Shown here: in pieces, positions 14,689 through 44,224 of the stretch
Layout of the letters: every line of letters starts with the position of its first letter
Numbering within the stretch: the first letter of the stretch is position 1
Source: Candidatus Omnitrophota bacterium
GTDB lineage: Bacteria; Omnitrophota; Gorgyraeia; Tantalellales; Tantalellaceae
NCBI GenBank assembly: GCA_014728075.1
Contig: WJMG01000091.1
Location: 13,181-77,180 of the forward strand
DNA: 64,000 nt
Direction: 5' to 3'
Made by a program: the position numbers and the translations under genes
The notes under the pieces: model-generated
Told to the model about the DNA's origin: nothing
Databases searched by the model: none
The model's input: the letters and a program-made list of their open reading frames with translations, nothing else

Positions 14689-14716
14689 TTGACACCTCAT
14701 TTTTTCCCTGTATACT
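14689..14716 (+). promoter_or_regulatory. Candidate sigma70-type promoter (TTGACA-N16-TATACT) upstream of the signalling operon
   Basis: TTGACA lies at 14689-14694 and TATACT at 14711-14716. The predicted TSS (about 14723) falls inside the first copy of the repeated TCAAAATACCTTG motif. Confidence 0.35.
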
Positions 14717-14963: not shown

Positions 14964-15149
14964 ATGATAAGTACGGTTATGACTGTCGAGGAACTCGCTA
15001 AATACCTCAAAATGAAAGTGGTTACGATCTATAAGCACGCTCAGGAAGGGAGAATACCGGGTTTTAAGGTAGGGTCCAAATGGCGCTTTAAAAAAGAAAC
15101 CATAGATGAATGGATCAGCCGGCAGGAAAGGCGTACCGGCCAATTTTAA
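14964..15149 (+). CDS. Small excisionase-family (MerR-superfamily, HTH_17) DNA-binding protein
   Basis: 61 aa with MTVEELAKYLKMKVVTIYKHAQEGRIPGFKVGSKWRFKKETIDEWI, which matches the excisionase/XIS HTH pattern. A GGGGTGGGAG RBS lies upstream. Confidence 0.7.
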   Translation: MISTVMTVEELAKYLKMKVVTIYKHAQEGRIPGFKVGSKWRFKKETIDEWISRQERRTGQF

Positions 15150-15162
15150 AGAAAGGATTCCC

Positions 15163-16536
15163 ATGGATTTTAATATCGCAGAAATAGATAATAGGAATAC
15201 TCCTAGAGTTCAATTAAATCTTCCTATTAAAATAAACAACAATAAGGGAGAAACAATAGATTTTAATGAATTAGGAATGGGATTTCGTACGCTAAATAAG
15301 ATTGAAAAAAGGGATTACAATGCAGAAATTAAACTAGATAGTGGGTGCATTGATTTTAATATTGAGATAATTTGGTCAAAGAAGGATAAAAAGTCAAATA
15401 CATACATCCATGGTGCAAAATTTTCAGAAATAAACCCTGTTAAGTTACAAAAAATAAGAAAAAAAGTTATTATCACAAAGTTGAAAAACACTATTAAATC
15501 TTTTTCTCTAAAAGCAGATAAGAAAGACTTAATGAGATTTTCAAAAGAAGTCTTAGCTTATTTGTCTTCCTTATATCATCTCTCAGAAAAACTAGATTCT
15601 GGCAATATGAGAGTTAAAAATGCATCAGAATTTTTAAAGACTAGAACAGACAAGGTGATGGAGGAAGCTAAAATTTTTCAAGATTCGATTAATAATAAAC
15701 TATTGGAGAAAAAAGCCAAAAAAGATTTTCGTGACCTGACGAGTTCTTGGGCCTATAAAGGGTTTATTGTTAAGAGATCTTTTGATAAGCCTCGAGGGTA
15801 TCCAGGTGATTTTAGGATAATGGAATATATTTATGACGAGATTTTAATATCAAAAGGGATTGGCCAGTGTTTTGATGTGTATTTCCAGAATAATGAATAT
15901 GCAGAAGCTGTTAGGAAAAGAAAAGACTGGATGAGGAGATATTTGGAAAATTTCATATCGGAAAAAAATAAGAAAAACATAAATATTTTAAATATAGCTT
16001 GTGGATCAAATCGAGAAATCAGAGAACTTTTGCATAATAAACCTTATGTTTATACACATCTTTCTGAAAAAGGAAAGAAAGTGATTTTGAATTTATTAGA
16101 TCAAGATAATGAAGCATTAGCCTTTTCTAACTTAAATCTAAAGTCTTTTAATCGTTTCGTTGACATAAGATTGCTTGATAATGATATTATGGATTTAACA
16201 AAAGAAAATGAAGTTCAAATTAATCAAAGCATGGATTTGATTTATACAATTGGATTGGCAGATTATTTACCAGACAGAATCTTGGGAAAGTTGCTCAATA
16301 GATGTGTGGATAATTTTTTAAAAAAAGATGGGAAGTTAGTTATTGCTCATAAAGATATTTCTCGTTATAGACCTATGCCTCCAAACTGGTTTTGTGATTG
16401 GAATTTTTATTCAAGAAATAAAGATGATTTAAATAATCTACTAAAAAAACATGTTGGATTTGATACTGTTGATGTTCAGTATTACAGAGATGATACTGGA
16501 ATTATTATTTTCGCAGAGTTGACAAAAATAAAATGA
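15163..16536 (+). CDS. PilZ-domain :: class I SAM-dependent methyltransferase fusion protein (putative c-di-GMP-responsive methyltransferase)
   Basis: The N-terminus has RNTPR (RxxxR) followed 19 aa later by DFNELG (D-x-N-x-x-G, a variant of PilZ DxSxxG). The C-terminus has methyltransferase motif I (ILNIACGSNREI), an acidic beta2 (LNLLDQDNE) and post I/III motifs (IRLLDNDIMDL; MDLIYTIGLADYL). ATG 15163 has a GAAAGGA RBS. The gene is markedly AT-rich. Confidence 0.6.
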   Translation: MDFNIAEIDNRNTPRVQLNLPIKINNNKGETIDFNELGMGFRTLNKIEKRDYNAEIKLDSGCIDFNIEIIWSKKDKKSNTYIHGAKFSEINPVKLQKIRKKVIITKLKNTIKSFSLKADKKDLMRFSKEVLAYLSSLYHLSEKLDSGNMRVKNASEFLKTRTDKVMEEAKIFQDSINNKLLEKKAKKDFRDLTSSWAYKGFIVKRSFDKPRGYPGDFRIMEYIYDEILISKGIGQCFDVYFQNNEYAEAVRKRKDWMRRYLENFISEKNKKNINILNIACGSNREIRELLHNKPYVYTHLSEKGKKVILNLLDQDNEALAFSNLNLKSFNRFVDIRLLDNDIMDLTKENEVQINQSMDLIYTIGLADYLPDRILGKLLNRCVDNFLKKDGKLVIAHKDISRYRPMPPNWFCDWNFYSRNKDDLNNLLKKHVGFDTVDVQYYRDDTGIIIFAELTKIK

Positions 16537-18692
16537 ATTTTCTAGCCTTTACTGGATTAATTAACTTTATTACCTGTATCGCTTTAGGTCTTTTTGTTCT
16601 TTTGAAAGGATTTAAGTCTCGCCAAAATATCACATACTTTTTTTTAAATGTAAGTGTTGCTGTTTTTAGCTTGGGGTATTTTCTCTGGCAAATAACATCC
16701 GATCTTTCAGCTGTTCAATGGTTTAAGTTATTAGTGGTAGGTATTATTTTAATTAATCAAGCATATCTTATTTTTGTGTTTACTTTTTTAAATATAATTA
16801 AACGCCATAAAGTACCATTGACCATATGTTTTGCATTGAACTTATTTTATATCTTTGCAAATTACAAAGGATGGTTGTACCAAGATTTTCTAAATAAATT
16901 CGAATTAGGTATTTGGCCGATTCCAACAAATTTATTTGTGTCATATCTTATTTTTTGGGTTGTTCAATGTGTTTATGGGTTTATTTATTTATTTATTAAT
17001 GCAAATAAAGGCTCAACGAGAAGAAGATTGCAAATAAGGTATTTCACAATAGCGGCAGTTGTTGGATTTCTGGGAGGCGCGACTAATTGGCCTATTTGGT
17101 TCAATATATATTTTCCTCCGTACGGTAATATCTTAATAAGTTTATATATCGCAATTGTTGCTTATGCAATTGTTAGGCATCAATTGATGGATATTAGCGT
17201 AATTGTAAAGAAAACGATAGTTTTTGCCGGTTTGTTTATAGCTTCGTACGCGGTTTTTGCAAGTTTTGCTTATATCGGTCTAGGCGTTATAGAAAACTTT
17301 ACTAAAAATAGATGGATAGCAATGCTGCCTTCGGTATTTGTTGTAGTTGTTATGTTGCGGCCGTTAGAGAGTTTTTTGAGGAATGTTACCGATAAATTCC
17401 TCTTTCAAAAAAAATACGATTATAAGACATTGCTCAAGACCTTTGCCGACGATGTCCTGATGGTCCTTGACATGAACGAACTTGTCAACCTTACCGTTAA
17501 TAAATTAACCGAGATCGTAAAGCTGGAGAACGCCACGATCTTGCTGAGCTCGGGGGAAGACGGCGATTTTAGCATAGTGGCCAGTTCCGGAATGGAGGAC
17601 CCCGAATATGAAATAACTTCAGGTTCCGGGATAAGCGATCTGCTTATGACAAAACCCGATTATCTTCTTTTTGAGGACTCCTCCGATACCGATAACTATG
17701 ACAATGAAGTCAGGCGTGCTATGAAAGACCTTCAGGCCCGGCTTCTTATCCCGCTTGTCCACAGGAACCAGGTAGTGGGGCTGCTTACCCTTGGAAAGAA
17801 GAAGTCTGATGAGGAATTCAGCCAGGACGACATCGATATCCTTCTTCCCATATCAAGGACGCTTTCCATAGCCATCGCCAACGCCAGGCTGTTCGAGCAG
17901 CTATCCGAAGCCCAGGCACAGGCGGCGCAGAGGGAGAAAATGGCCGTTATAGGCACGCTTTCGGCCGGGATCAATCACGAGATCTGCAATCCCCTGGGTA
18001 TCGCCAGGGGGCAGTGCGAGATGTTCCTTCTTAACCTTAAAGAGGGCCTTTACGACGCTAAAGACCCCGAAGAGCTTCTTTTGAAAGCCCGGGAGATAAT
18101 GGAGAAGGTCATAACCGAAACCGACCGGGCGACCGTTATTACACGCAAGCTTTCCTCCTTCGCCAAACCGGCAAAGGGGAACCTCCGGGAAGGCGTAGTC
18201 GTGGCCGAGGAACTGAGAGAGGTGATTTCGCTTCTCGAGCATGATCTCAGGCTGGATAATATAGAGATCGTAGAGGATTTCGGCGGCGATGTCCCGCCGA
18301 TAGTCGCCGACAAAAAACAGCTTCAGGAGATATTTTTCAACCTGATAAGGAACGCGGCCCAGTCGATCAAGGCGGAGGGCGCGATAATACTGCGGACCCG
18401 GTCTGACAGGGGCAGGGTTTCTGTCGAGATAGAGGATACGGGAGAGGGAATAAGTGAAAGCAACCTTAAGCGCATATTCGATCCGTTCTTCACGACAAAA
18501 GACCCGGGTAAAGGCACCGGTCTCGGGCTTTTTATCGTCAAGCAGATCGTTGAGAGGAACAACGGCCGAATATCGGTTGCCAGCGAATCCGGGAAGGGGA
18601 CCGTGTTCTCGGTCGTATTCGGTTCCGTTAAGGGCGCAGGCCTTTTTGCCGGCGGAGAGGACGGCGGGAAAAGAAAGGTAGCGGTTAAATGA
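16533..18692 (+). CDS. Sensor histidine kinase with N-terminal 7TM sensor module, GAF domain, HisKA and HATPase_c
   Basis: About 230 aa of polytopic N-terminus paralogous to the HK at 20828-22432. A GAF-like middle domain. The H-box INHEICNPLGI and the G-boxes DTGEGI...GTGLGL are present. The gene overlaps the upstream stop (ATGA). Confidence 0.85.
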   Translation: MNFLAFTGLINFITCIALGLFVLLKGFKSRQNITYFFLNVSVAVFSLGYFLWQITSDLSAVQWFKLLVVGIILINQAYLIFVFTFLNIIKRHKVPLTICFALNLFYIFANYKGWLYQDFLNKFELGIWPIPTNLFVSYLIFWVVQCVYGFIYLFINANKGSTRRRLQIRYFTIAAVVGFLGGATNWPIWFNIYFPPYGNILISLYIAIVAYAIVRHQLMDISVIVKKTIVFAGLFIASYAVFASFAYIGLGVIENFTKNRWIAMLPSVFVVVVMLRPLESFLRNVTDKFLFQKKYDYKTLLKTFADDVLMVLDMNELVNLTVNKLTEIVKLENATILLSSGEDGDFSIVASSGMEDPEYEITSGSGISDLLMTKPDYLLFEDSSDTDNYDNEVRRAMKDLQARLLIPLVHRNQVVGLLTLGKKKSDEEFSQDDIDILLPISRTLSIAIANARLFEQLSEAQAQAAQREKMAVIGTLSAGINHEICNPLGIARGQCEMFLLNLKEGLYDAKDPEELLLKAREIMEKVITETDRATVITRKLSSFAKPAKGNLREGVVVAEELREVISLLEHDLRLDNIEIVEDFGGDVPPIVADKKQLQEIFFNLIRNAAQSIKAEGAIILRTRSDRGRVSVEIEDTGEGISESNLKRIFDPFFTTKDPGKGTGLGLFIVKQIVERNNGRISVASESGKGTVFSVVFGSVKGAGLFAGGEDGGKRKVAVK

Positions 18693-19495
18693 ACATTCCG
18701 TACGGAGCCGGAGAGGGAGGCAGGAAAGCGATCCTCTCTATAGATGACGAAACCAGTTTTACGGAACTGCTCAAGGGGTATTTTGAGCTGAGAGGCTACA
18801 GGGTCGATGTCACCAACGACGGTTCCAAGGGGCTTGAGCTCGCGAAAAGGAACCGGTACGATGTTGCGCTTCTCGACCTTAAAATGGAAGGCATGGACGG
18901 GGACGAGGTCATGCGGAAGATGAGGCGGATAAATCCCCGTACAAGGACTATATTCATAACCGCTTACAACGATTCGGGCAAGACCCGGAAGAGGCTTCTT
19001 GACGAAGGGGCCTTCGCGTTTGTGGAAAAACCGATCTCTAGCCTTAAAGACCTGGAGGAAACGGTCAGGCGGGCCGTTGAACCTCCCACAAAGAAAGGGG
19101 CTGACGCTATGCTTAAGATCCTGGTCGTGGACGACGAGATAGATATCTGTGATTTCGTGAAAAATTTTTTCAAGGACAGGAATTTCGAGGTTTTCGTGGC
19201 CCACGACGGCAGGGAGGCGCTCAACCTGGTCGAGTCCAGGAGACCCGATATAGTGCTCCTGGATGTCAAGATGCCCGTCATGGACGGCATGCAGGCCCTG
19301 AGGGAGATAAAGAAAGTGAACAGGAAAAGCCGGATAATAATGATCACGGCGGTGAACGATACCGACAGGATAGAGGAAGCGAGGCGACTCGGTGTGTACG
19401 AGTACATAACCAAGCCTCTTTTGCTGGAACAGCTGGAAAGGACCGTGCTGACCGTGGCCGAAGAGATAAAAATGGAGGAGACAGAGGGTGAATAA
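18689..19495 (+). CDS. Response regulator with two tandem receiver (REC) domains and no output domain
   Basis: REC1 has ILSIDDETS...VALLDLKMEGMDG and REC2 has KILVVDDEIDI...IVLLDVKMPVMDG. The gene overlaps the HK stop (ATGA). Confidence 0.85.
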   Translation: MNIPYGAGEGGRKAILSIDDETSFTELLKGYFELRGYRVDVTNDGSKGLELAKRNRYDVALLDLKMEGMDGDEVMRKMRRINPRTRTIFITAYNDSGKTRKRLLDEGAFAFVEKPISSLKDLEETVRRAVEPPTKKGADAMLKILVVDDEIDICDFVKNFFKDRNFEVFVAHDGREALNLVESRRPDIVLLDVKMPVMDGMQALREIKKVNRKSRIIMITAVNDTDRIEEARRLGVYEYITKPLLLEQLERTVLTVAEEIKMEETEGE

Positions 19496-20837
19496 CTCTA
19501 CGAAAAACGACAATTTCGCGCAGGAGAATAACTGGCTTAAGCTGCAGGACTGGATATCGGAAAAGATAAGGAGCTGCGACGGCGGCCTTATCCCCATGGA
19601 CAGCGACCTCGGCAGCAGGAGAGAAGAACCGGAGCTTGATTACCAGTACTTTCTCGAGAACGCGTCCAGGACCATGATACGCTTCAAGAAGGTGGAGCAC
19701 CTGATAAAGATGATCGTGCGCACCATCGACGAACAGGTAAAGGTCACTCATACGGCCATGCTGGTCCTCAGCAGGGATAAAGACTGCTTTAACCTTATCG
19801 ATTCCAAAGGCGTGGAGGGGATGAAGATACCCGTGGGGTTTATCCGCCTGACCTTTACCAACCCGCTGGTGAAATTATTCAACGAGAGGCGGAATTTCAC
19901 GATCTCCGAAACCGGGGCCGTAAGCTACAAGGGTCTGCTGGATTCGCTTACGAGGAACGAAAAAGTGGCCGGTAACACCGGGCTGTCGGAGCTTGTGAAA
20001 CTTTCGATAAAGCAGATGGAGCTTCTCAAGGCCACCCTGTGCGTCCCGATATATTACAAAAAGGACCTTCTCGGTGTCTTTGTCCTGGGGAAAAAGCTTT
20101 CCAACATGAGCTTCTGCAGGCAGGAGATAAGTTTTTTCGGAACGCTCGCCAACGATGTCGCCATGGCCATTTCGAACGCCAATCTCATACAGGACCTGCA
20201 GGAGAAGATATACGAGGTCCACGAGCTTTACGAAAGGGAGCACCGTATATTCATCAATACTTCGATCTCGCTTGCGGCCGCTATAGACGCCAGGGACCCG
20301 TATACCCACGGCCATACCGAACGAGTGACCCAGTACGCGCTTTCGATATCCGAGGAGCTTGACGATCTGCCGGAAGCACAGGCTTACCTGAACTTCAGGG
20401 AAACCCTGCACATAGCGGGCCTCCTCCACGATGTGGGGAAGATAGGAGTACCGGACAGTATATTGAACAAGGAGGACCAGCTTACTTCAGAGGAGTACGA
20501 ACGGATAAAAGAACACTCGCTTACAGGCGCGGCGATACTTTATCCGATAAGCGAACTGAAAGGCGTGTGCAACGAGGTGCGGGCGCATCACGAAAGATAC
20601 GACGGGGAAGGCTATCCTGACGGGCTGAAAGCCGACGAGATACCTTTCGTCGCGCGGATAATCGCCGTCGCGGACACCTTTGACGCCGTAACCAGCGACA
20701 GGCCGTACAGGAGGAAAAAACCGGCCGAGACGGCCGTCAGGATAATAGAGGAAAATTCGGGAACTCAGTTCGACCCGGTAGTTGTAAGCGCTTTTCTGCT
20801 GGCATATAAAAAAGGCAAGTTCAAGAATTATGTCTGA
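19488..20837 (+). CDS. HD-GYP domain c-di-GMP phosphodiesterase with N-terminal GAF-like domain
   Basis: HGHTERV...HDVGKIGVP...HHERYDGEGYPDGL (HD plus GYP motifs) are present. The GTG start overlaps the upstream gene end. Confidence 0.85.
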   Translation: MNNSTKNDNFAQENNWLKLQDWISEKIRSCDGGLIPMDSDLGSRREEPELDYQYFLENASRTMIRFKKVEHLIKMIVRTIDEQVKVTHTAMLVLSRDKDCFNLIDSKGVEGMKIPVGFIRLTFTNPLVKLFNERRNFTISETGAVSYKGLLDSLTRNEKVAGNTGLSELVKLSIKQMELLKATLCVPIYYKKDLLGVFVLGKKLSNMSFCRQEISFFGTLANDVAMAISNANLIQDLQEKIYEVHELYEREHRIFINTSISLAAAIDARDPYTHGHTERVTQYALSISEELDDLPEAQAYLNFRETLHIAGLLHDVGKIGVPDSILNKEDQLTSEEYERIKEHSLTGAAILYPISELKGVCNEVRAHHERYDGEGYPDGLKADEIPFVARIIAVADTFDAVTSDRPYRRKKPAETAVRIIEENSGTQFDPVVVSAFLLAYKKGKFKNYV

Positions 20838-22432
20838 TCTCCGGCAGGCAGCTCTATCCTGAAAGAGGCGCCTTCCTTTGTGCTTGAGACTTTTACCGAG
20901 CCCTCGTGTTTCTCTATAATACCGTGCACTACGCTTAAGCCTAATCCGGAACCTTCGTCCTTCCTGGAGAAGAAGGGGTCGAATATCCTCTTCAGGTCTT
21001 CCTTTTCTATCCCCGTGCCGGTATCGGATATTTCAACGAACACTTTCGTTCCTTCTTTCCCGGTCCTTATTACGATCGAACCCGGCGGGCGGATCGCGTC
21101 TTTCGCGTTAAGGAGAAGGTTGAGGAAAGCCTGTTTCAATTGGACCGGATCGGCGTTTATGCGGGGAAGGTCGGACAGGTGCCTTTCAACAGATATGTTC
21201 TTTCTGAGAAAATCGTTGTTCAGGAACTCGCAAGTCTCGTTTATCAAAAGATTAACATCCGTTCTGCGTATATTGAGGCTCGCCGGTTTTGAGAATTCAA
21301 GCAATTGCCTGACGATGTTGTTGATCTTGTCGACTTCGGCCGGGACTATCCGGCAGAACTTCTCTAAAAAAACGGGGTCGTTGTGCCGGGCGGGCAAAAA
21401 CTCGGAAAAGGTCTTTATCGAGGTTAAGGGGTTCTTTATCTCATGCGCCATGCCGGCGGCAAGGGTGGATATGGCCTTGAGCTTTTCTGCTCGCTGGAGT
21501 TCATTTCTCAACTTTATATTTTCTTCGTCGATTTGCGAGATGGATCCATGAAAGAAATATTTGTCTAAAAGATATTGAATTTTGTTTTTTATAGGATTAA
21601 ATAAAAAAAGGAAAAAACATAAAATAAACAAAGAGAAAGAAATAGAATGATATTTATAGTAATTTCTAAATATATGTTCGAGAATAAAGATGGTCGAAAT
21701 GTATAGTGCTAAAAGAGTTGAAACGATAACGCTATATATAACAGTTTTTTTAAAAACTATATTAATGTCGAGTAATTTGTGTGCAATAATGGTATAAGCA
21801 AGTATTCCGATATAAATTGTTAAAAGTAAATTTAAGTAAGGGGGGATAGGGATTTTAAAAAAAAGAAAATAATTAGTTGAACCGCCTAGATATCCTGCTA
21901 TCAATGCAATGACAATATATTTTATTTTATTTTTATTTGCTGAAGATGCTTTACGATAACATTTTAATGGTGTCACAATTGATAACATAGCATAAGTGAA
22001 AAAATATGCTAAAAAAACATAATAAATTGGGCCTGGAATTCCCCAGTATGGAAAAATGTCTACAGAACGCACGCCTGATATGAAATATGGCGTAAAAATT
22101 AATAGTGCGATAGTTGTTCCGAATAAATATCCTATAAAAAGCAATTTATCTCGTTTAATCTTTAAGAGAGTAGACACGAAATGAAAAGTAGTAATAGGTA
22201 TAAATACAGCGCCTAAATGTAGGAATCGAAACCAGAATAAAACTTTAATAGGGATTGTTGATAAGGGCCAAAAGATATATCCAAAACTCCAAATTGCTAT
22301 GAAGACATTCATTATTGAAAAGCGAAAATTAATTCTTGAATGGGGGTTTTTAGATAATACATAGACGGCTAAGATAAGTGCACCTATGAAATTTATTGCT
22401 CCAGATAGTGAAAAAAAATGTAAATAATTCAT
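20828..22432 (-). CDS. Sensor histidine kinase (7TM sensor module, HisKA, HATPase_c)
   Basis: The N-terminal polytopic domain is paralogous to the 16533 HK (compare AHKLLDINIVFKKT with RHQLMDISVIVKKT). The H-box MAHEIKNPLTSI and the ATPase G-boxes DTGTGI...GSGLGL are present. Confidence 0.85.
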   Translation of the reverse strand: MNYLHFFSLSGAINFIGALILAVYVLSKNPHSRINFRFSIMNVFIAIWSFGYIFWPLSTIPIKVLFWFRFLHLGAVFIPITTFHFVSTLLKIKRDKLLFIGYLFGTTIALLIFTPYFISGVRSVDIFPYWGIPGPIYYVFLAYFFTYAMLSIVTPLKCYRKASSANKNKIKYIVIALIAGYLGGSTNYFLFFKIPIPPYLNLLLTIYIGILAYTIIAHKLLDINIVFKKTVIYSVIVSTLLALYISTIFILEHIFRNYYKYHSISFSLFILCFFLFLFNPIKNKIQYLLDKYFFHGSISQIDEENIKLRNELQRAEKLKAISTLAAGMAHEIKNPLTSIKTFSEFLPARHNDPVFLEKFCRIVPAEVDKINNIVRQLLEFSKPASLNIRRTDVNLLINETCEFLNNDFLRKNISVERHLSDLPRINADPVQLKQAFLNLLLNAKDAIRPPGSIVIRTGKEGTKVFVEISDTGTGIEKEDLKRIFDPFFSRKDEGSGLGLSVVHGIIEKHEGSVKVSSTKEGASFRIELPAGDQT

Positions 22433-22443
22433 ATCATGGAAGA

Positions 22444-22803
22444 TTATTTTAATAAATTTCTTGTTTTTTCAAAAACTTCTGATTTGTTGAAAGGCTTGGA
22501 AATATATTCTACAGCTCCTAATTTCATTGCTTTTGTTGCCATTTCAACACTTTGATATCCCGTGATTATTATCACTTTCAGTTCCGGGGCTATTTTCCTG
22601 ATCTCCTCTAAAGTCTCAAGCCCGTTACGGACGGGCATTTTTATATCTAGAAGCAGGCCGTCGTAAGGGGCTTCTTTGATCTTGTTTACGGCTTCCGCGC
22701 CGTTATTCGCGAAATCAAGCTCGTAATCGTTTTCAAGGATAAGGTTCAGCGACTCGCGCACACCTTCCTCGTCGTCGCATATCAGTATCCGTTTTTTCTG
22801 CAT
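22444..22803 (-). CDS. Single-domain CheY-like response regulator receiver
   Basis: 119 aa with ILICDDEEGV...LLLDIKMPVRNGLE...KPF. It lies 11 nt upstream of the - strand HK. Confidence 0.85.
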   Translation of the reverse strand: MQKKRILICDDEEGVRESLNLILENDYELDFANNGAEAVNKIKEAPYDGLLLDIKMPVRNGLETLEEIRKIAPELKVIIITGYQSVEMATKAMKLGAVEYISKPFNKSEVFEKTRNLLK

Positions 22804-22870: not shown

Positions 22871-23422
22871 CTATAAAGCCGGCGGAGATATTACGCAGAT
22901 CGCTTCGGCCTTTGACCTGCCCTTGTTGGTGAATGTATGGGGGAGCGAGGCGTCAAAATACAGGCTGTCGCCGGTCTTAAGCGAATAATCCGATTTTCCC
23001 ACTACGGCCGTCATCGCCCCCGAAAGTATGTAAATAAATTTCTCCACCCCGGTCCTGTTCTCTTCAGGCTGGGTCTTGCCCCCGGGATCGAGCCGTATGA
23101 CCAGGGGCATTATCTTTTTGTCCATGGTCTTGGTGACGAGCAGTTCATAGCGGGCCTTGGGCGAATGCACGAAATGCTCTGTTCTTCTTTTCCTGGGTAC
23201 GCTTTCAACTGTCTTTGATTCTTCCTCGATGCCGGCGTAAAGTTCGGCCAGCGATGTGTTCAGTGCTTTACAGATGTTCTGGTGGGCTTCCAGCGTTCCC
23301 GTCATCTTGTTGTTTTCCATTCTGCTGAGAGTCGCAAGCGCGACACCGCTTTTCTCCGACAGTTCGTTAAGGGTTATCCCGCGGTCTTTTCTCAACTGAC
23401 GCAACTTTTTGCCTATTTTCAT
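22871..23422 (-). CDS. XRE-family HTH plus cupin-domain transcriptional regulator
   Basis: The N-terminus has LRQLRKDRGITLNELSEKSGVALATLSRMEN (an XRE HTH). The C-terminus has a cupin fold (GDSLYFDASLPHTFTN). Confidence 0.8.
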   Translation of the reverse strand: MKIGKKLRQLRKDRGITLNELSEKSGVALATLSRMENNKMTGTLEAHQNICKALNTSLAELYAGIEEESKTVESVPRKRRTEHFVHSPKARYELLVTKTMDKKIMPLVIRLDPGGKTQPEENRTGVEKFIYILSGAMTAVVGKSDYSLKTGDSLYFDASLPHTFTNKGRSKAEAICVISPPAL

Positions 23423-42605: not shown

Positions 42606-43259
42606 ATGGAGACCGGCGTAATGGTCATTCGGATACTGCTGGCTACGGTGCTCGGTGCAATAGTCGGCTTTGAAAGAGAGGTCAACGGCTGCGCGGCCGG
42701 ACTCCGGACCCATATACTGGTCTGTCTCGGTTCGGCGGTTTTTATGGTGGCTTCCGTGGTGGTGGCGCCCATGTACGGACATCTGGGAGCGGTCGATCCT
42801 TCACGAATAGCCGCAAACATCGTTACGGGTGTAGGTTTTCTGGGCGCCGGAGCTATAATCCGCTACGGCGCATCTATCAGAGGATTGACGACCGCGGCAA
42901 GCATCTGGGCCGTAGCCGCCGTAGGACTCGTGGCGGGCGCCGGCATGTATATAGCCGCTGTTCTCAGTACGGTCCTGATAGTATGTACACTTTTTCTTTC
43001 CAAGCTGGAGGAGAGAATGGAGCTCAAGCGGGGCGGCAAGAAACTCATTATCCGGCTTTCCTCCGAAGAGGCTGTAGACGCTCAGGATGTACATAAAATA
43101 ATATCAGCTTACGGAGGCAGCGTCCGGAAAGTCGAAAAAGACAGGAACCAGGATGAATACCTTCTTATAGTCGATCTTATGCTTTCAAGGCTTTATCGCA
43201 AGGATGTAGTTTCCGAGCTTCTGAACCTCTCCGGTGTTCACGAAGTGGAATGGAAATGA
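42606..43259 (+). CDS. MgtC/SapB family membrane protein
   Basis: ILLATVLGAIVGFEREVNGCAAGLRTHILVCLGSAVFMV is the MgtC signature. A C-terminal ACT-like soluble domain is present. Confidence 0.8.
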   Translation: METGVMVIRILLATVLGAIVGFEREVNGCAAGLRTHILVCLGSAVFMVASVVVAPMYGHLGAVDPSRIAANIVTGVGFLGAGAIIRYGASIRGLTTAASIWAVAAVGLVAGAGMYIAAVLSTVLIVCTLFLSKLEERMELKRGGKKLIIRLSSEEAVDAQDVHKIISAYGGSVRKVEKDRNQDEYLLIVDLMLSRLYRKDVVSELLNLSGVHEVEWK

Positions 43260-43299
43260 GCGGATTTTTGTCGTTTACCGAAATAAAAAGGAGGTCGTG

Positions 43300-43857
43300 A
43301 TGAGACGGAAAAAACAACATAAAGAAGAGGCGCTTCCGAAACAGGAAGAGAAGGTCCTGGATGTTAACGCCAGCATGCAGGGGACATTAAGGTTTGATGA
43401 TCCCGTTAATTTGAGGATAAGCGGGAAGTTCGAGGGCACGCTCGATACAAAAGGGCGTCTCATGGTAGGGAAAAAAGCCGATATCTCGGCGGATATAACC
43501 GGTGAAAGCATTTCTATAGCCGGTAATGTAAAAGGCAACATAAAAGCTTTCGGCGTACTTTCTTTAGAGTCGACCGCGGTTCTTGAGGGTGATGTCGAGG
43601 CTGCCAGTCTTTCCGTTGAAGAAGGCGCTGTAATAAACGGAAATCTCAGGATGACGGGGTCCGGATCCTCCGCGCCTTCCGGGCGGGGAGACTGGATGAC
43701 CATCTCGCAGCTGGCAAAATACCTTGAGGTCGAGTCCGCGAAAGTGACCGAATGGGCTGATGGCGGCATGCTCCCCGGCACAAGGGAAGGAGGAGAGTGG
43801 GTCTTCGAAAAGAACAAAGTGGACCAGTGGATAGCTGACGGAAAGGTCAAGGCTTGA
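43300..43857 (+). CDS. Bactofilin-domain protein fused to a C-terminal excisionase-type HTH DNA-binding domain
   Basis: Bactofilin (DUF583) beta-helix repeats are present (ISGKFEGTLDT...ISADITGESISIAGNVKGNIKAF...LEGDVEAASLSVEEGAVINGNLRM). A C-terminal MTISQLAKYLEVESAKVTEWADGGMLPG...GEWVFEKNKVDQWI HTH_17 follows. An AAGGAGG RBS lies before ATG 43300. Confidence 0.7.
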   Translation: MRRKKQHKEEALPKQEEKVLDVNASMQGTLRFDDPVNLRISGKFEGTLDTKGRLMVGKKADISADITGESISIAGNVKGNIKAFGVLSLESTAVLEGDVEAASLSVEEGAVINGNLRMTGSGSSAPSGRGDWMTISQLAKYLEVESAKVTEWADGGMLPGTREGGEWVFEKNKVDQWIADGKVKA

Positions 43858-43858
43858 T

Positions 43859-44224
43859 ATGCCCGAAAAACTTTTGACACTGGATGAACTTTCGGAATAC
43901 CTCCAGATAAAGAAGAAGACGCTCAACCGCCTGGTGGACAAAGGTGTCATTTCTGCGTACCGGATAGGCGGTGAGCTTCTCCGGTTCAGAAAAGAACAGA
44001 TAGACGCTATAAAGTCCGAGATAGATTCACGAATTGCCGAAAAGGACAGGTTGCTCAGGGAGGAGGGCGATAACCGCACGGGAGCCGAGCGTTTGCGGCA
44101 GATGCGCCGTAAGGGAAACGAATCGTTGAGGGATAAGGTCAGTGATTTCCTTTACTTCAACGATTTTTACATACTCTCGGCATGTATAATAGCTGTTCTG
44201 CTGGTGGTAATATTCCGCAGATGA
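43859..44224 (+). CDS. Excisionase-family HTH protein with C-terminal transmembrane anchor
   Basis: LLTLDELSEYLQIKKKTLNRLVDKGVISAYRIGGELLRFRKEQIDAI is an HTH_17. A C-terminal hydrophobic segment (FYILSACIIAVLLVVIF) follows. It starts 2 nt after the bactofilin-HTH stop. Confidence 0.6.
   Translation: MPEKLLTLDELSEYLQIKKKTLNRLVDKGVISAYRIGGELLRFRKEQIDAIKSEIDSRIAEKDRLLREEGDNRTGAERLRQMRRKGNESLRDKVSDFLYFNDFYILSACIIAVLLVVIFRR

Follow-up and report, generated by a model that had tools for sequence, protein, structure and literature searches.

A PilZ domain fused to a PhcB-related methyltransferase in an Omnitrophota genome: a possible c-di-GMP-gated signal synthase paired with a membrane sensor kinase

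Gene organization at the locus

The stretch of DNA analysed here (the window, 64 kb) comes from an Omnitrophota MAG and carries, at 15163..16536 on the + strand, a gene for a 457-aa protein in which a PilZ domain is joined, through a helical lid, to a class I SAM methyltransferase of the PhcB-like kind. This reading frame had been predicted from the sequence alone and its existence was confirmed. The ATG at 15163 is favoured over one at 15106 by an AAAGGA ribosome-binding site 7 nt upstream, by the N-termini of homologs, and by the NCBI protein P0001 (457 aa), which is identical to the translation. Every motif quoted in the original prediction was recovered there, namely RNTPR (residues 11-15), DFNELG (33-38), ILNIACGSNREI (274-285), LNLLDQDNE (309-317) and MDLIYTIGLADYL (357-369), and the fusion of a PilZ domain to a class I methyltransferase is genuine, as judged by Pfam matches of the N-domain, by the N-domains of the family and by invariant SAM-motif residues.

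The folds and their order along the chain were established as follows. Residues 1-112 (15163..15498, +) form the PilZ domain, a six-stranded beta-barrel (16-89) followed by a C-terminal alpha-helix (92-112), and this helix leads straight into the enzyme's lid, a helical bundle of residues 117-267 (15511..15963, +) that AF2 models as helices. Within the lid lie two family-invariant motifs, K209-P-R-G-Y-P-G-D216 (15787-15813, +; from the homolog alignment) and Y246..R251-x-R253-K. Residues 272-455 (15976..16527, +) adopt the seven-stranded Rossmann-like fold that binds SAM.

The surrounding operon is preceded by an AT-rich intergenic region with a promoter-like site, TTGACA-16-TATACT (14689..14716, +; 11/12 matches), which is a consensus match only, the region holding 23 such sites against 19 expected. 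The first gene (14964..15149, +) encodes a 61-aa HTH_17 (excisionase/MerR-like) DNA-binding protein (Pfam E 2.7e-17). Downstream of the methyltransferase gene, Pfam identified a histidine kinase, HK1 (16533..18692, +), with HisKA_7TM sensor, GAF, HisKA and HATPase domains, a REC-REC response regulator with no output domain (18689..19495, +; Response_reg in two stretches, E 3e-55), and a GAF-like plus HD-GYP (HD_5) c-di-GMP phosphodiesterase (19488..20837, +; HD_5 E 1.8e-42) whose translation contains both the HD and the GYP motifs (LLHDVGK, GEGYPDG); the operon of kinase, dual-receiver protein and HD-GYP enzyme was thus correctly foreseen. From the methyltransferase to the HD-GYP gene, starts and stops overlap by 4-8 nt, the HK1 start overlapping the methyltransferase stop by 4 nt. 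Convergent with the operon is a second HisKA_7TM histidine kinase gene, HK2 (20828..22432, -; Pfam), and upstream of HK2 lie genes for a single-domain REC protein (22444..22803, -; Pfam E 5.6e-30), syntenic in L002 and L071, and for an XRE-HTH plus cupin regulator (22871..23422, -; Pfam), syntenic with the cluster in several Omnitrophota loci (it was found in L001, L002, L006, L009, L015 and L071). Neither a second copy of the methyltransferase gene nor a GGDEF gene was found in the 64-kb window, and a search for riboswitches and other RNA elements over 13.5-24.5 kb gave no Rfam match at E <= 0.1.

The presence of the HD-GYP neighbour had been taken to strengthen the link to c-di-GMP, an argument that comparison with related loci does not bear out for PilZ specifically. 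An HD-GYP gene occurs in 14 of the 52 loci with enough flank, in 8/27 of those with PilZ-bearing forms and in 6/25 of those with PilZ-less forms, and a specific co-occurrence with PilZ was rejected; because the neighbour is found in about a quarter of these loci and equally often without PilZ, it offers no specific support for the PilZ link. HD-GYP or GGDEF genes are recurrent in related clusters.

The PilZ domain and its ligand-binding motifs

The PilZ assignment held up in an HMM search with Pfam PilZ (PF07238), which scored the isolated N-domain at 24.9-25.2 bits, above the 22.5-bit gathering threshold, and the whole protein at 21.3 bits (E 3.6e-4), slightly below it. The same model matched 26 of 29 family N-domains (best E 2e-14), and the family profile matched the PilZ domain of Alg44 in the PDB (E 6e-5). 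The first signature motif, R11-N-T-P-R15 (15193..15207, +), has both arginines invariant in the N-domain alignment, and 69 of 70 family members, the query among them, carry RxxxR. The second, D33-F-N35-E-L-G38 (15259..15276, +), is a variant of [D/N]hSxxG (as defined in bioRxiv 10.1101/814665) in which Asn replaces Ser; across the family the canonical Ser is found in 57/70 members, Asn in 8, consisting of the query and its nearest relatives (among them P0002, P0003 and P0006), and Gly in 5. The contacts to c-di-GMP in MapZ are made by Arg9, Arg13, Asp35 and Ser37 (bioRxiv 10.1101/814665).

As far as can be judged from alignments, then, the PilZ motifs are conserved across the family, and in this respect the proposed connection to c-di-GMP stands; since the query has Asn at the Ser position of its second motif, binding by this particular protein is less certain than the original prediction assumed, although it may occur. 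A reading that we consider rather doubtful is that the query PilZ no longer binds c-di-GMP and has become a structural or interaction module on an enzyme that is still a PhcB-like kinase partner. The departure of DFNELG from [D/N]hSxxG, the Asn and Gly variants in other members, and the score of the full-length protein below the Pfam gathering value would agree with such a loss, degenerate PilZ domains are common (bioRxiv 10.1101/814665), and PilZ-less relatives keep the same kinase partner, which indicates that the core function is independent of PilZ. However, both arginines, the Asp, the hydrophobic residue at the h position (F34) and the Gly are all kept, Asn is still able to donate and accept hydrogen bonds, and PA2989, which has a substituted second motif, still binds c-di-GMP (bioRxiv 10.1101/814665).

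A methyltransferase module related to PhcB

The methyltransferase half was less readily placed by standard models. No Pfam methyltransferase model exceeded its cut-off with the query, the sole match being Methyltransf_20 (E 0.014, 15 bits against a cut-off of 21), an NCBIfam search of the query gave nothing meaningful, and a PDB sequence search with the single protein returned only noise. Homologs such as P0080 and P0090 do exceed the cut-offs for PF13847, PF13649 and PF12147, and the diagnostic elements of the class are present in the query, that is, a glycine-rich motif I (LNIACGSNREI, 15982-16017, +), in which L-N-I-A-C-G281-S-N-R-E285 is a variant of xGxGxG, and an acidic residue, D313, at the end of beta-2 (16099-16101, +). 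All 92 homologs keep G281, E285, D313 and D315 of the SAM motifs unchanged, so that the predicted methyltransferase is borne out by its conserved residues but not by a Pfam model at cut-off.

The failure of the query to reach the threshold of any Pfam methyltransferase model, together with single-chain HTH_17-PilZ-methyltransferase fusions that resemble one-component regulators, might suggest a non-catalytic module, a SAM/SAH or metabolite sensor regulating the kinase or, with the HTH_17 partner, DNA binding. We regard this as very improbable: the 92 homologs show no variation at the SAM-motif residues or at about 20 other positions, which are shared with the methyl-ester-producing PhcB, and such active-site-like conservation would be unusual in a pure sensor.

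The enzyme had not been recognised as a member of a characterised family. Profile comparison instead identified it as a relative of PhcB, the genetically characterised quorum-signal methyltransferase of Ralstonia and other Burkholderiales, which was reached through a tblastn match on a Paraburkholderia plasmid and a protein search. Residues 192-453 of the query are homologous to PhcB at about 24% identity; the family profile matched a Paraburkholderia graminis methyltransferase with a probability of 99.6% (E 2e-24), and an alignment of 21 Burkholderiales orthologs in hhalign with 99.7% (E 3.8e-26) over 248 columns. The lid aligns to PhcB from residue 192 on (PhcB has KPLGYAGDY and RNRxD), and the invariant motifs KPxGYxGDY, RNRxD, GLxDYLxD and WxxxxRxE, all outside the SAM site, are common to the family and PhcB. 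By these comparisons the lid and Rossmann module are homologous to PhcB, and the query carries the lid and methyltransferase module, with the shared motifs, of the PhcB (KEGG K19620-type) family.

In NCBI and JGI the Burkholderiales orthologs go under the names 'extracellular factor (EF) 3-hydroxypalmitic acid methyl ester biosynthesis protein' or 'Regulatory protein', they are located in a methyltransferase-kinase-RR-RR operon (comparator L081), and in the family of the query itself seven members bear the PhcB KO name in JGI. To our knowledge the chemistry of PhcB is known from genetics and heterologous production, and we know of no reconstituted reaction. What the query does not share with PhcB is its N-terminal domain, which in PhcB is beta-rich, about 95 aa long, without a Pfam match and marked by R22, a residue conserved in the Burkholderiales orthologs used here and in PhcB of Ralstonia, Cupriavidus and Paraburkholderia (PMC6989110); in the query PilZ stands in its place. 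The N-terminal half of PhcB could not be aligned with PilZ, and the idea that it is itself a degenerate PilZ found no support, a PilZ profile matching the PhcB alignment with E 0.51.

Distribution of the family

A scan of species-representative genomes gave 334 related loci, of which 80, mainly from uncultivated phyla, were retrieved. PhcB-type signalling has so far been regarded as peculiar to Ralstonia and its relatives, and our literature search found no mention of PhcB homologs outside that group, against these 334 loci. The PilZ fusion recurs in other genomes, as the original prediction would have it, being carried by 46 of the 80 retrieved relatives and missing from 34. To judge by this distribution, PilZ is an accessory input that has been gained or lost many times; the N-terminal inputs vary (HTH_17-PilZ-MT, REC-PilZ-MT and PilZ-PilZ-MT) and are always placed on the synthase. 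The methyltransferase gene has an HTH_17 gene upstream of it in 10/46 PilZ-bearing loci against 0/34 PilZ-less ones, and since some other lineages have HTH_17 and the enzyme fused (HTH_17-PilZ-methyltransferase in a single chain in P0069 and P0015), the HTH_17 protein is proposed as a probable further partner of the enzyme.

The partner kinase and its mosaic gene

The conserved partner of the methyltransferase is the 7TM histidine kinase immediately downstream. Such a HisKA_7TM kinase follows the methyltransferase gene in 67 of the 77 retrieved loci that had enough downstream sequence, at gaps mostly of -11 to +22 nt, and the pair is conserved across Omnitrophota, Spirochaetota, Thermodesulfobacteriota, Nitrospirota, Margulisiibacteriota and others. 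The locus is therefore organized like a PhcB operon, with the gene of a membrane sensor kinase directly downstream of the enzyme. The sensor of HK1, a polytopic membrane domain encoded by codons 1-295 (16533..17417, +), has about seven membrane helices and is almost free of loops.

A block of low GC3 at about 15150-17415 takes in the methyltransferase gene together with codons 1 to ~295 of the kinase gene, including the whole sensor, and ends inside the kinase gene, with GC3 of 0.14-0.38 in the block and 0.6-0.76 in the remainder of the HK1 gene. The same mosaic is seen in 17 of 51 loci, and in the opposite direction in one. In a mirror-tree analysis the methyltransferase correlated with the sensor at r 0.64 and with the kinase core at r 0.43, sensor and core correlating with each other at r 0.28. 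By co-evolution and shared composition, the methyltransferase and the membrane sensor of the kinase behave as one evolutionary module. A second low-GC3 block (21548-22432, -) covers the sensor of HK2, whose history differs from that of the HK2 kinase core and whose best matches are methyltransferase-adjacent kinases of other phyla.

Simpler accounts of the mosaic were considered. A recent import unique to this genome was rejected, the mosaic also being present in L002, L004, L055 (a single-cell genome) and others, and the HK1 sensor is as similar to its L002 counterpart as is the kinase core. An assembly chimera is unlikely because four in-frame junctions would be needed on one contig and because the pattern recurs in independent assemblies. 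Homology of the HK1 sensor to that of PhcS was likewise rejected, as hhalign found no similarity to the PhcS-like sensor; HK1 has HisKA_7TM followed by GAF, and the PhcS-like kinase about 6 TM helices with a weak MASE8 match. With a HisKA_7TM sensor so unlike the PhcS-like one, HK1 can be called a receptor by analogy only.

An enzyme acting on the kinase itself would be expected to show tight methyltransferase-sensor coupling just as much.

In an improbable alternative, the enzyme would be a protein methyltransferase acting on the adjacent 7TM kinase or its regulators, an adaptation-type system comparable to CheR and its chemoreceptors, with PilZ making the modification dependent on c-di-GMP much as MapZ, in trans, does with CheR1. 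Strict adjacency and the 4-nt overlap with the kinase gene would fit, the co-evolution and common composition of methyltransferase and sensor would also follow from contact between enzyme and substrate, and MapZ-CheR provides a precedent for a PilZ-controlled methyltransferase (bioRxiv 10.1101/814665). Against this, the homology is to PhcB and not to CheR, the conserved lid motifs are common to an enzyme that makes a diffusible ester, and in protein comparisons limited to the genes of the query set neither the window cluster nor the related loci yielded a CheB-like demethylase.

A proposed signalling circuit

Because the PhcB-related enzyme almost always precedes a 7TM kinase, a signal synthase controlled by a second messenger and paired with its receptor appears the most likely interpretation. 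We tentatively propose, at a confidence that falls somewhat short of an even chance, an autoinducer-type synthase gated by PilZ, together with a cognate receptor kinase and a c-di-GMP output. The quorum signals of Ralstonia, methyl 3-hydroxy fatty acids, are made by PhcB, whose family is defined by the products methyl 3-hydroxymyristate or methyl 3-hydroxypalmitate. In that system PhcB is the signal synthase and PhcS the sensor (PMC7694676). By homology, the enzyme described here would most likely methylate a small hydrophobic metabolite, the best guess being carboxyl methylation of a fatty-acid-like compound to yield a membrane-permeant signal. The translationally coupled HK1 would be the cognate receptor, and its signal would pass via REC-REC to the GAF-HD-GYP phosphodiesterase, thereby lowering c-di-GMP, although the HD-GYP protein has no receiver domain, so that the link from the kinase to it is a presumed one. 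With PilZ on the enzyme, production of the signal would become c-di-GMP-dependent, and the extracellular signal and the intracellular messenger would be tied together in a feedback loop. In this scheme the substrate and product are those that analogy would predict, HK1 would sense the product on similar grounds, and the direction of regulation is the presumed one.

A bolder extension, which we think unlikely, is that the methyltransferase, together with the sensor half of the kinase, makes up a mobile signal-plus-receptor specificity cassette, swapped at the sensor/core boundary, within a widespread and c-di-GMP-gated quorum-sensing family. Such cassettes would be exchanged by recombination among uncultivated lineages, with Omnitrophota, Spirochaetota, Nitrospirota and others as hosts; in the PilZ-bearing branch c-di-GMP would gate synthesis while the HD-GYP output degrades c-di-GMP, and orphan receptors such as HK2 might listen to foreign signals. 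The agrBDC and comQXP pherotype regions are specificity cassettes of an analogous kind. Were this extension true, it would amount to a previously undescribed quorum-sensing family with a built-in second-messenger feedback loop. We know of no autoinducer synthase under direct c-di-GMP gating by a fused PilZ domain, and the connections between quorum sensing and c-di-GMP that are known to us run from receptor to GGDEF, EAL or HD-GYP enzymes and not back onto the synthase.

For Omnitrophota and similar groups the locus provides a candidate cell-cell signalling system that can be tested; it also suggests a class of ligand for the uncharacterised HisKA_7TM sensor domain, and could serve as a cis-fused model for PilZ control of a soluble enzyme. 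The GC3 mosaic that ends inside kinase genes is, in turn, a checkable candidate case of sensor-domain swapping.

Comparison with known systems

The overall design of the proposed circuit recalls the Rpf/DSF system of Xanthomonas, composed of the synthase RpfF, the sensor kinase RpfC and the REC-HD-GYP protein RpfG, in that a diffusible signal of the fatty-acid type is sensed by a membrane kinase with an HD-GYP c-di-GMP phosphodiesterase as output. The Rpf synthase, however, is a crotonase and not a methyltransferase, and it has no PilZ domain; moreover, RpfG has its own receiver domain, whereas REC-REC and GAF-HD-GYP are separate proteins here. The canonical PilZ fusions to enzymes, those of the cellulose synthase BcsA and of Alg44, differ from the present one, in which PilZ is N-terminal and its partner is a soluble methyltransferase rather than a membrane glycosyltransferase. 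PDB 3ocj, a 'putative exported protein' of Bordetella parapertussis, is 17% identical and without a PilZ domain; it was not recovered by sequence with either the family profile or the PhcB profile.

With MapZ-CheR1 of Pseudomonas aeruginosa the locus would share the principle that a PilZ domain, canonical in MapZ, places the activity of a class I SAM methyltransferase under the influence of c-di-GMP; in that system the contact is made by the C-terminal helix of PilZ (bioRxiv 10.1101/814665). The target on which MapZ acts in trans is a chemotaxis protein methyltransferase, whereas the query PilZ sits in cis on a PhcB-type enzyme whose substrate is probably a small molecule.

The closest relative is PhcB-PhcS(-PhcR/PhcQ) of the Ralstonia solanacearum complex and other Burkholderiales. 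Both systems have the SAM methyltransferase module with its lid motifs, followed directly by the gene of a polytopic-membrane histidine kinase and then by receiver proteins; both carry an extra N-terminal domain on the synthase, and in PhcB the R22C substitution affects output (PMC6989110). Receivers appear to influence synthesis in both, through PhcQ there and through REC-PilZ-MT fusions or upstream REC genes here, and synthase and sensor co-evolve in both (PMC7694676 for the Phc system, the mirror-tree analysis for the present one). The two differ in that the enzymes are only about 24% identical and the N-terminal PilZ has no detectable similarity to the N-terminus of PhcB, in that the kinase has HisKA_7TM then GAF instead of the ~6-TM PhcS type, in that the output here would be an HD-GYP enzyme and there is PhcA, and in that the hosts here are uncultivated Omnitrophota and other non-proteobacterial phyla.

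Gene model and PilZ domain

The methyltransferase gene at 15163-16536 (+) translates to a protein of 457 aa, the query of this analysis. Three lines of evidence favour the start at 15163: an AAAGGA site lies 7 nt ahead of it, the N-termini of homologs agree with it, and the NCBI record 'MAG: hypothetical protein GF408_08395 [Candidatus Omnitrophica bacterium]' is identical. A start at the other candidate ATG, 15106, would make the gene run into a small one before it (14964-15149), which encodes a 61-aa HTH_17 protein (Pfam HTH_17, E 2.7e-17). Two adjacent ORFs further along, 43234-43857 and 43859-44224 (+), also match this HTH_17 protein (E 3.5e-10 and 3e-7).

All of the sequence motifs cited in the original prediction are found in the translation, and the proposed N-terminal PilZ domain was recovered by the Pfam PilZ model, marginally with the full-length protein (21.3 bits, the gathering score being 22.5) and above that score with the isolated N-domain (24.9-25.2 bits). 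The model also matches 26 of 29 homologous N-domains (best E 2e-14), and the family profile picks up the PilZ domains of Alg44, MotI/YpfA, and PA0012 in the PDB. The RxxxR motif (R11 and R15 in the query) is kept in 69 of 70 PilZ-bearing relatives, and the second motif has the canonical form [D/N]xSxxG in 57 of the 70. Family membership and fold of the query N-domain are therefore secure. A rival view is that this particular PilZ domain is degenerate, as the query and its closest relatives have [D/N]xNxxG in place of the canonical second motif. The ligand contacts of MapZ are two Arg, an Asp, and a Ser (bioRxiv 10.1101/814665), and with Asn at the position of that Ser, c-di-GMP binding by the query is putative.

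Relationship to PhcB

The original prediction recognised no characterised family in the protein, a view that no longer holds, as the profiles of the query family and of PhcB orthologs match over query residues 192-453 (probability 99.7%, E 3.8e-26), with shared motifs reaching well past the SAM site. Comparison with a single ortholog sequence gave the link too. JGI gives several homologs the name under which KEGG lists PhcB, 'extracellular factor (EF) 3-hydroxypalmitic acid methyl ester biosynthesis protein', and a tblastn search of plasmids with the methyltransferase module led to a gene of Paraburkholderia graminis, in an operon encoding a methyltransferase (468 aa), a kinase (445 aa), and two response regulators (134 and 344 aa). 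The P. graminis protein is 65-92% identical to PhcB-named proteins of Paraburkholderia, Cupriavidus, Massilia, and Janthinobacterium, in which R22 is invariant; R22 is likewise conserved in PhcB of Ralstonia, Cupriavidus, and Paraburkholderia (PMC6989110). PhcB synthesises methyl 3-hydroxymyristate/palmitate, which the kinase PhcS senses (PMC7694676). An alternative is that the methyltransferase part is a non-catalytic sensor module, but this is disfavoured by the invariance of active-site-like residues. No PhcB-family structure was found in the PDB, and the PilZ profile gave no match to the PhcB N-terminus.

The Burkholderiales orthologs (L081:5644-7047, the Paraburkholderia comparator, and alignment A3) share a conserved N-terminal domain, beta-rich and about 95 aa long, that includes the invariant R22, a residue hit by an adaptive mutation (PMC6989110); no Pfam model matches the domain, and profile comparison found no similarity to PilZ.

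Conservation and partners

A scan of one genome per species yielded 334 related loci; the 80 that were retrieved (L-numbers below) span Omnitrophota, Spirochaetota (including Leptospiraceae), Thermodesulfobacteriota, Nitrospirota, Margulisiibacteriota, Elusimicrobiota, and others. The fusion is thus conserved in other genomes, PilZ being present in 46 of the 80. A histidine kinase of the same type as the partner kinase HK1 (16533-18692, +) is the next same-strand gene in 67 of the 77 loci having downstream sequence, with gaps mostly of -11 to +22 nt, and this pairing is alike with PilZ (40/46) and without it (27/34). HD-GYP genes, counted where at least 5 kb of downstream sequence was available, are found in 8 of 27 PilZ-bearing and 6 of 25 PilZ-less loci. 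Upstream HTH_17 genes (10/46 versus 0/34) and REC genes (12/46 versus 1/34) are specific to the PilZ-bearing forms, and the same partners are also seen as fusions (HTH_17-PilZ-MT, REC-PilZ-MT, and PilZ-PilZ-MT, where MT is the methyltransferase). In a rough neighbour-joining tree built from the methyltransferase module, the distribution of PilZ requires at least 17 changes versus 33 for shuffled states, so that PilZ is a clustered accessory input that was repeatedly gained or lost.

GGDEF-motif genes adjoin the methyltransferase-kinase pair or sit inside the partner kinase in three loci (L034:11408-12340, L046:2771-5557, and L065:5590-7817), so that c-di-GMP turnover recurs as a cluster output even without PilZ. 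In several cases one MAG or contig has at least two paralogous methyltransferase(-kinase) units (L008 + L015; L007 + L025; L037:99-3668; L068:8076-10819), an observation that fits several parallel signalling channels.

A methyltransferase-sensor module

Two low-GC blocks have sharp boundaries: 15150-17417 coincides exactly with the methyltransferase gene and the 7TM sensor of HK1, and 21548-22600 with the 7TM sensor of HK2, a second, convergent kinase (20828-22432, -). GC at third codon positions (GC3) is 0.14-0.32 in the methyltransferase gene and 0.15-0.45 over the first ~290 codons of HK1, then jumps to 0.55-0.8 within about 20 codons, just past the last membrane helix; flanking genes have values of 0.6-0.75. 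The first and second codon positions (GC1 and GC2) are low in GC too, which gives the encoded proteins themselves the composition of an AT-rich genome. The second block shows the same properties over the first ~295 codons of HK2; GC3 for the two blocks is 0.14-0.4, compared with 0.6-0.75 elsewhere, and in each kinase gene the block stops in frame near codon 295. In 17 of 51 related loci the kinase C-terminus has a GC3 more than 0.1 above that of the N-terminus, and in 1 the difference is reversed (Wilcoxon p 1e-6); compared with the methyltransferase gene, GC3 of the kinase C-terminus is higher by this margin in 27 loci and lower by as much in none. One of the loci with this mosaic, L055, is a single-cell genome, which speaks against a binning artefact. 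A simple recent import was ruled out, the mosaic being present in L002 too, where the HK1 sensor is as similar to that of the window as is the HK1 core. Cassette exchange and a persistent bias are both possible causes.

Pairwise distances of the methyltransferase correlate better with those of the adjacent kinase sensor (r 0.64, partial 0.60) than with those of the kinase core (r 0.43, partial 0.35), and the correlation between sensor and core within one protein is just 0.28; methyltransferase and sensor form one module. Such tight coupling would also be accounted for if the enzyme were a protein methyltransferase of the CheR kind with the kinase as its substrate, yet this is disfavoured, as both the PhcB homology and the structural neighbours speak against it. 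The core of HK2 is closest to syntenic kinases of L002, L080, and L004, whereas its sensor most resembles those of kinases in other phyla that adjoin a methyltransferase gene, such as L045 (Nitrospirota). This differing kinship points to sensor-domain swapping and to HK2 as a probable 'orphan' receptor of the methyltransferase-partnered type. The HD-GYP and HK2 genes overlap by 10 nt at their 3' ends (20828-20837), and no convincing terminator was found between them.

Proposed mechanism and known systems

We infer that the PhcB-type enzyme would produce a methylated, membrane-permeant small molecule, which may be detected in the membrane by the co-translated kinase through its loop-less HisKA_7TM sensor. 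Phosphotransfer from HK1 would reach the REC-REC protein (18689-19495, +), and through it, presumably, the GAF-HD-GYP enzyme (19488-20837, +), whose HD and GYP motifs are intact and which would lower c-di-GMP. The PilZ C-terminal helix, which mediates partner contacts in MapZ-CheR and BcsA (bioRxiv 10.1101/814665), joins PilZ to the lid of the enzyme, and by this route PilZ would tie synthesis to c-di-GMP. The analyses establish the folds, the homology, the pairing of the genes, the co-evolution of the module, and the conservation of the PilZ motifs across the family; c-di-GMP binding, the chemistry, the match of receptor and ligand, and the step from the REC proteins to HD-GYP belong to the proposal.

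Relatives bear automatic database names, either 'PilZ domain-containing protein' or 'class I SAM-dependent methyltransferase', a survey of PilZ proteins mentions methyltransferases for MapZ-CheR only (bioRxiv 10.1101/814665), and our literature search found nothing on PhcB homologs outside known PhcB hosts or on a PilZ-PhcB fusion. The cluster resembles the PhcB system in its pairing of a PhcB-type synthase with a sensor kinase, but differs in its PilZ input, its sensor domain, and, in this instance, its putative HD-GYP output.
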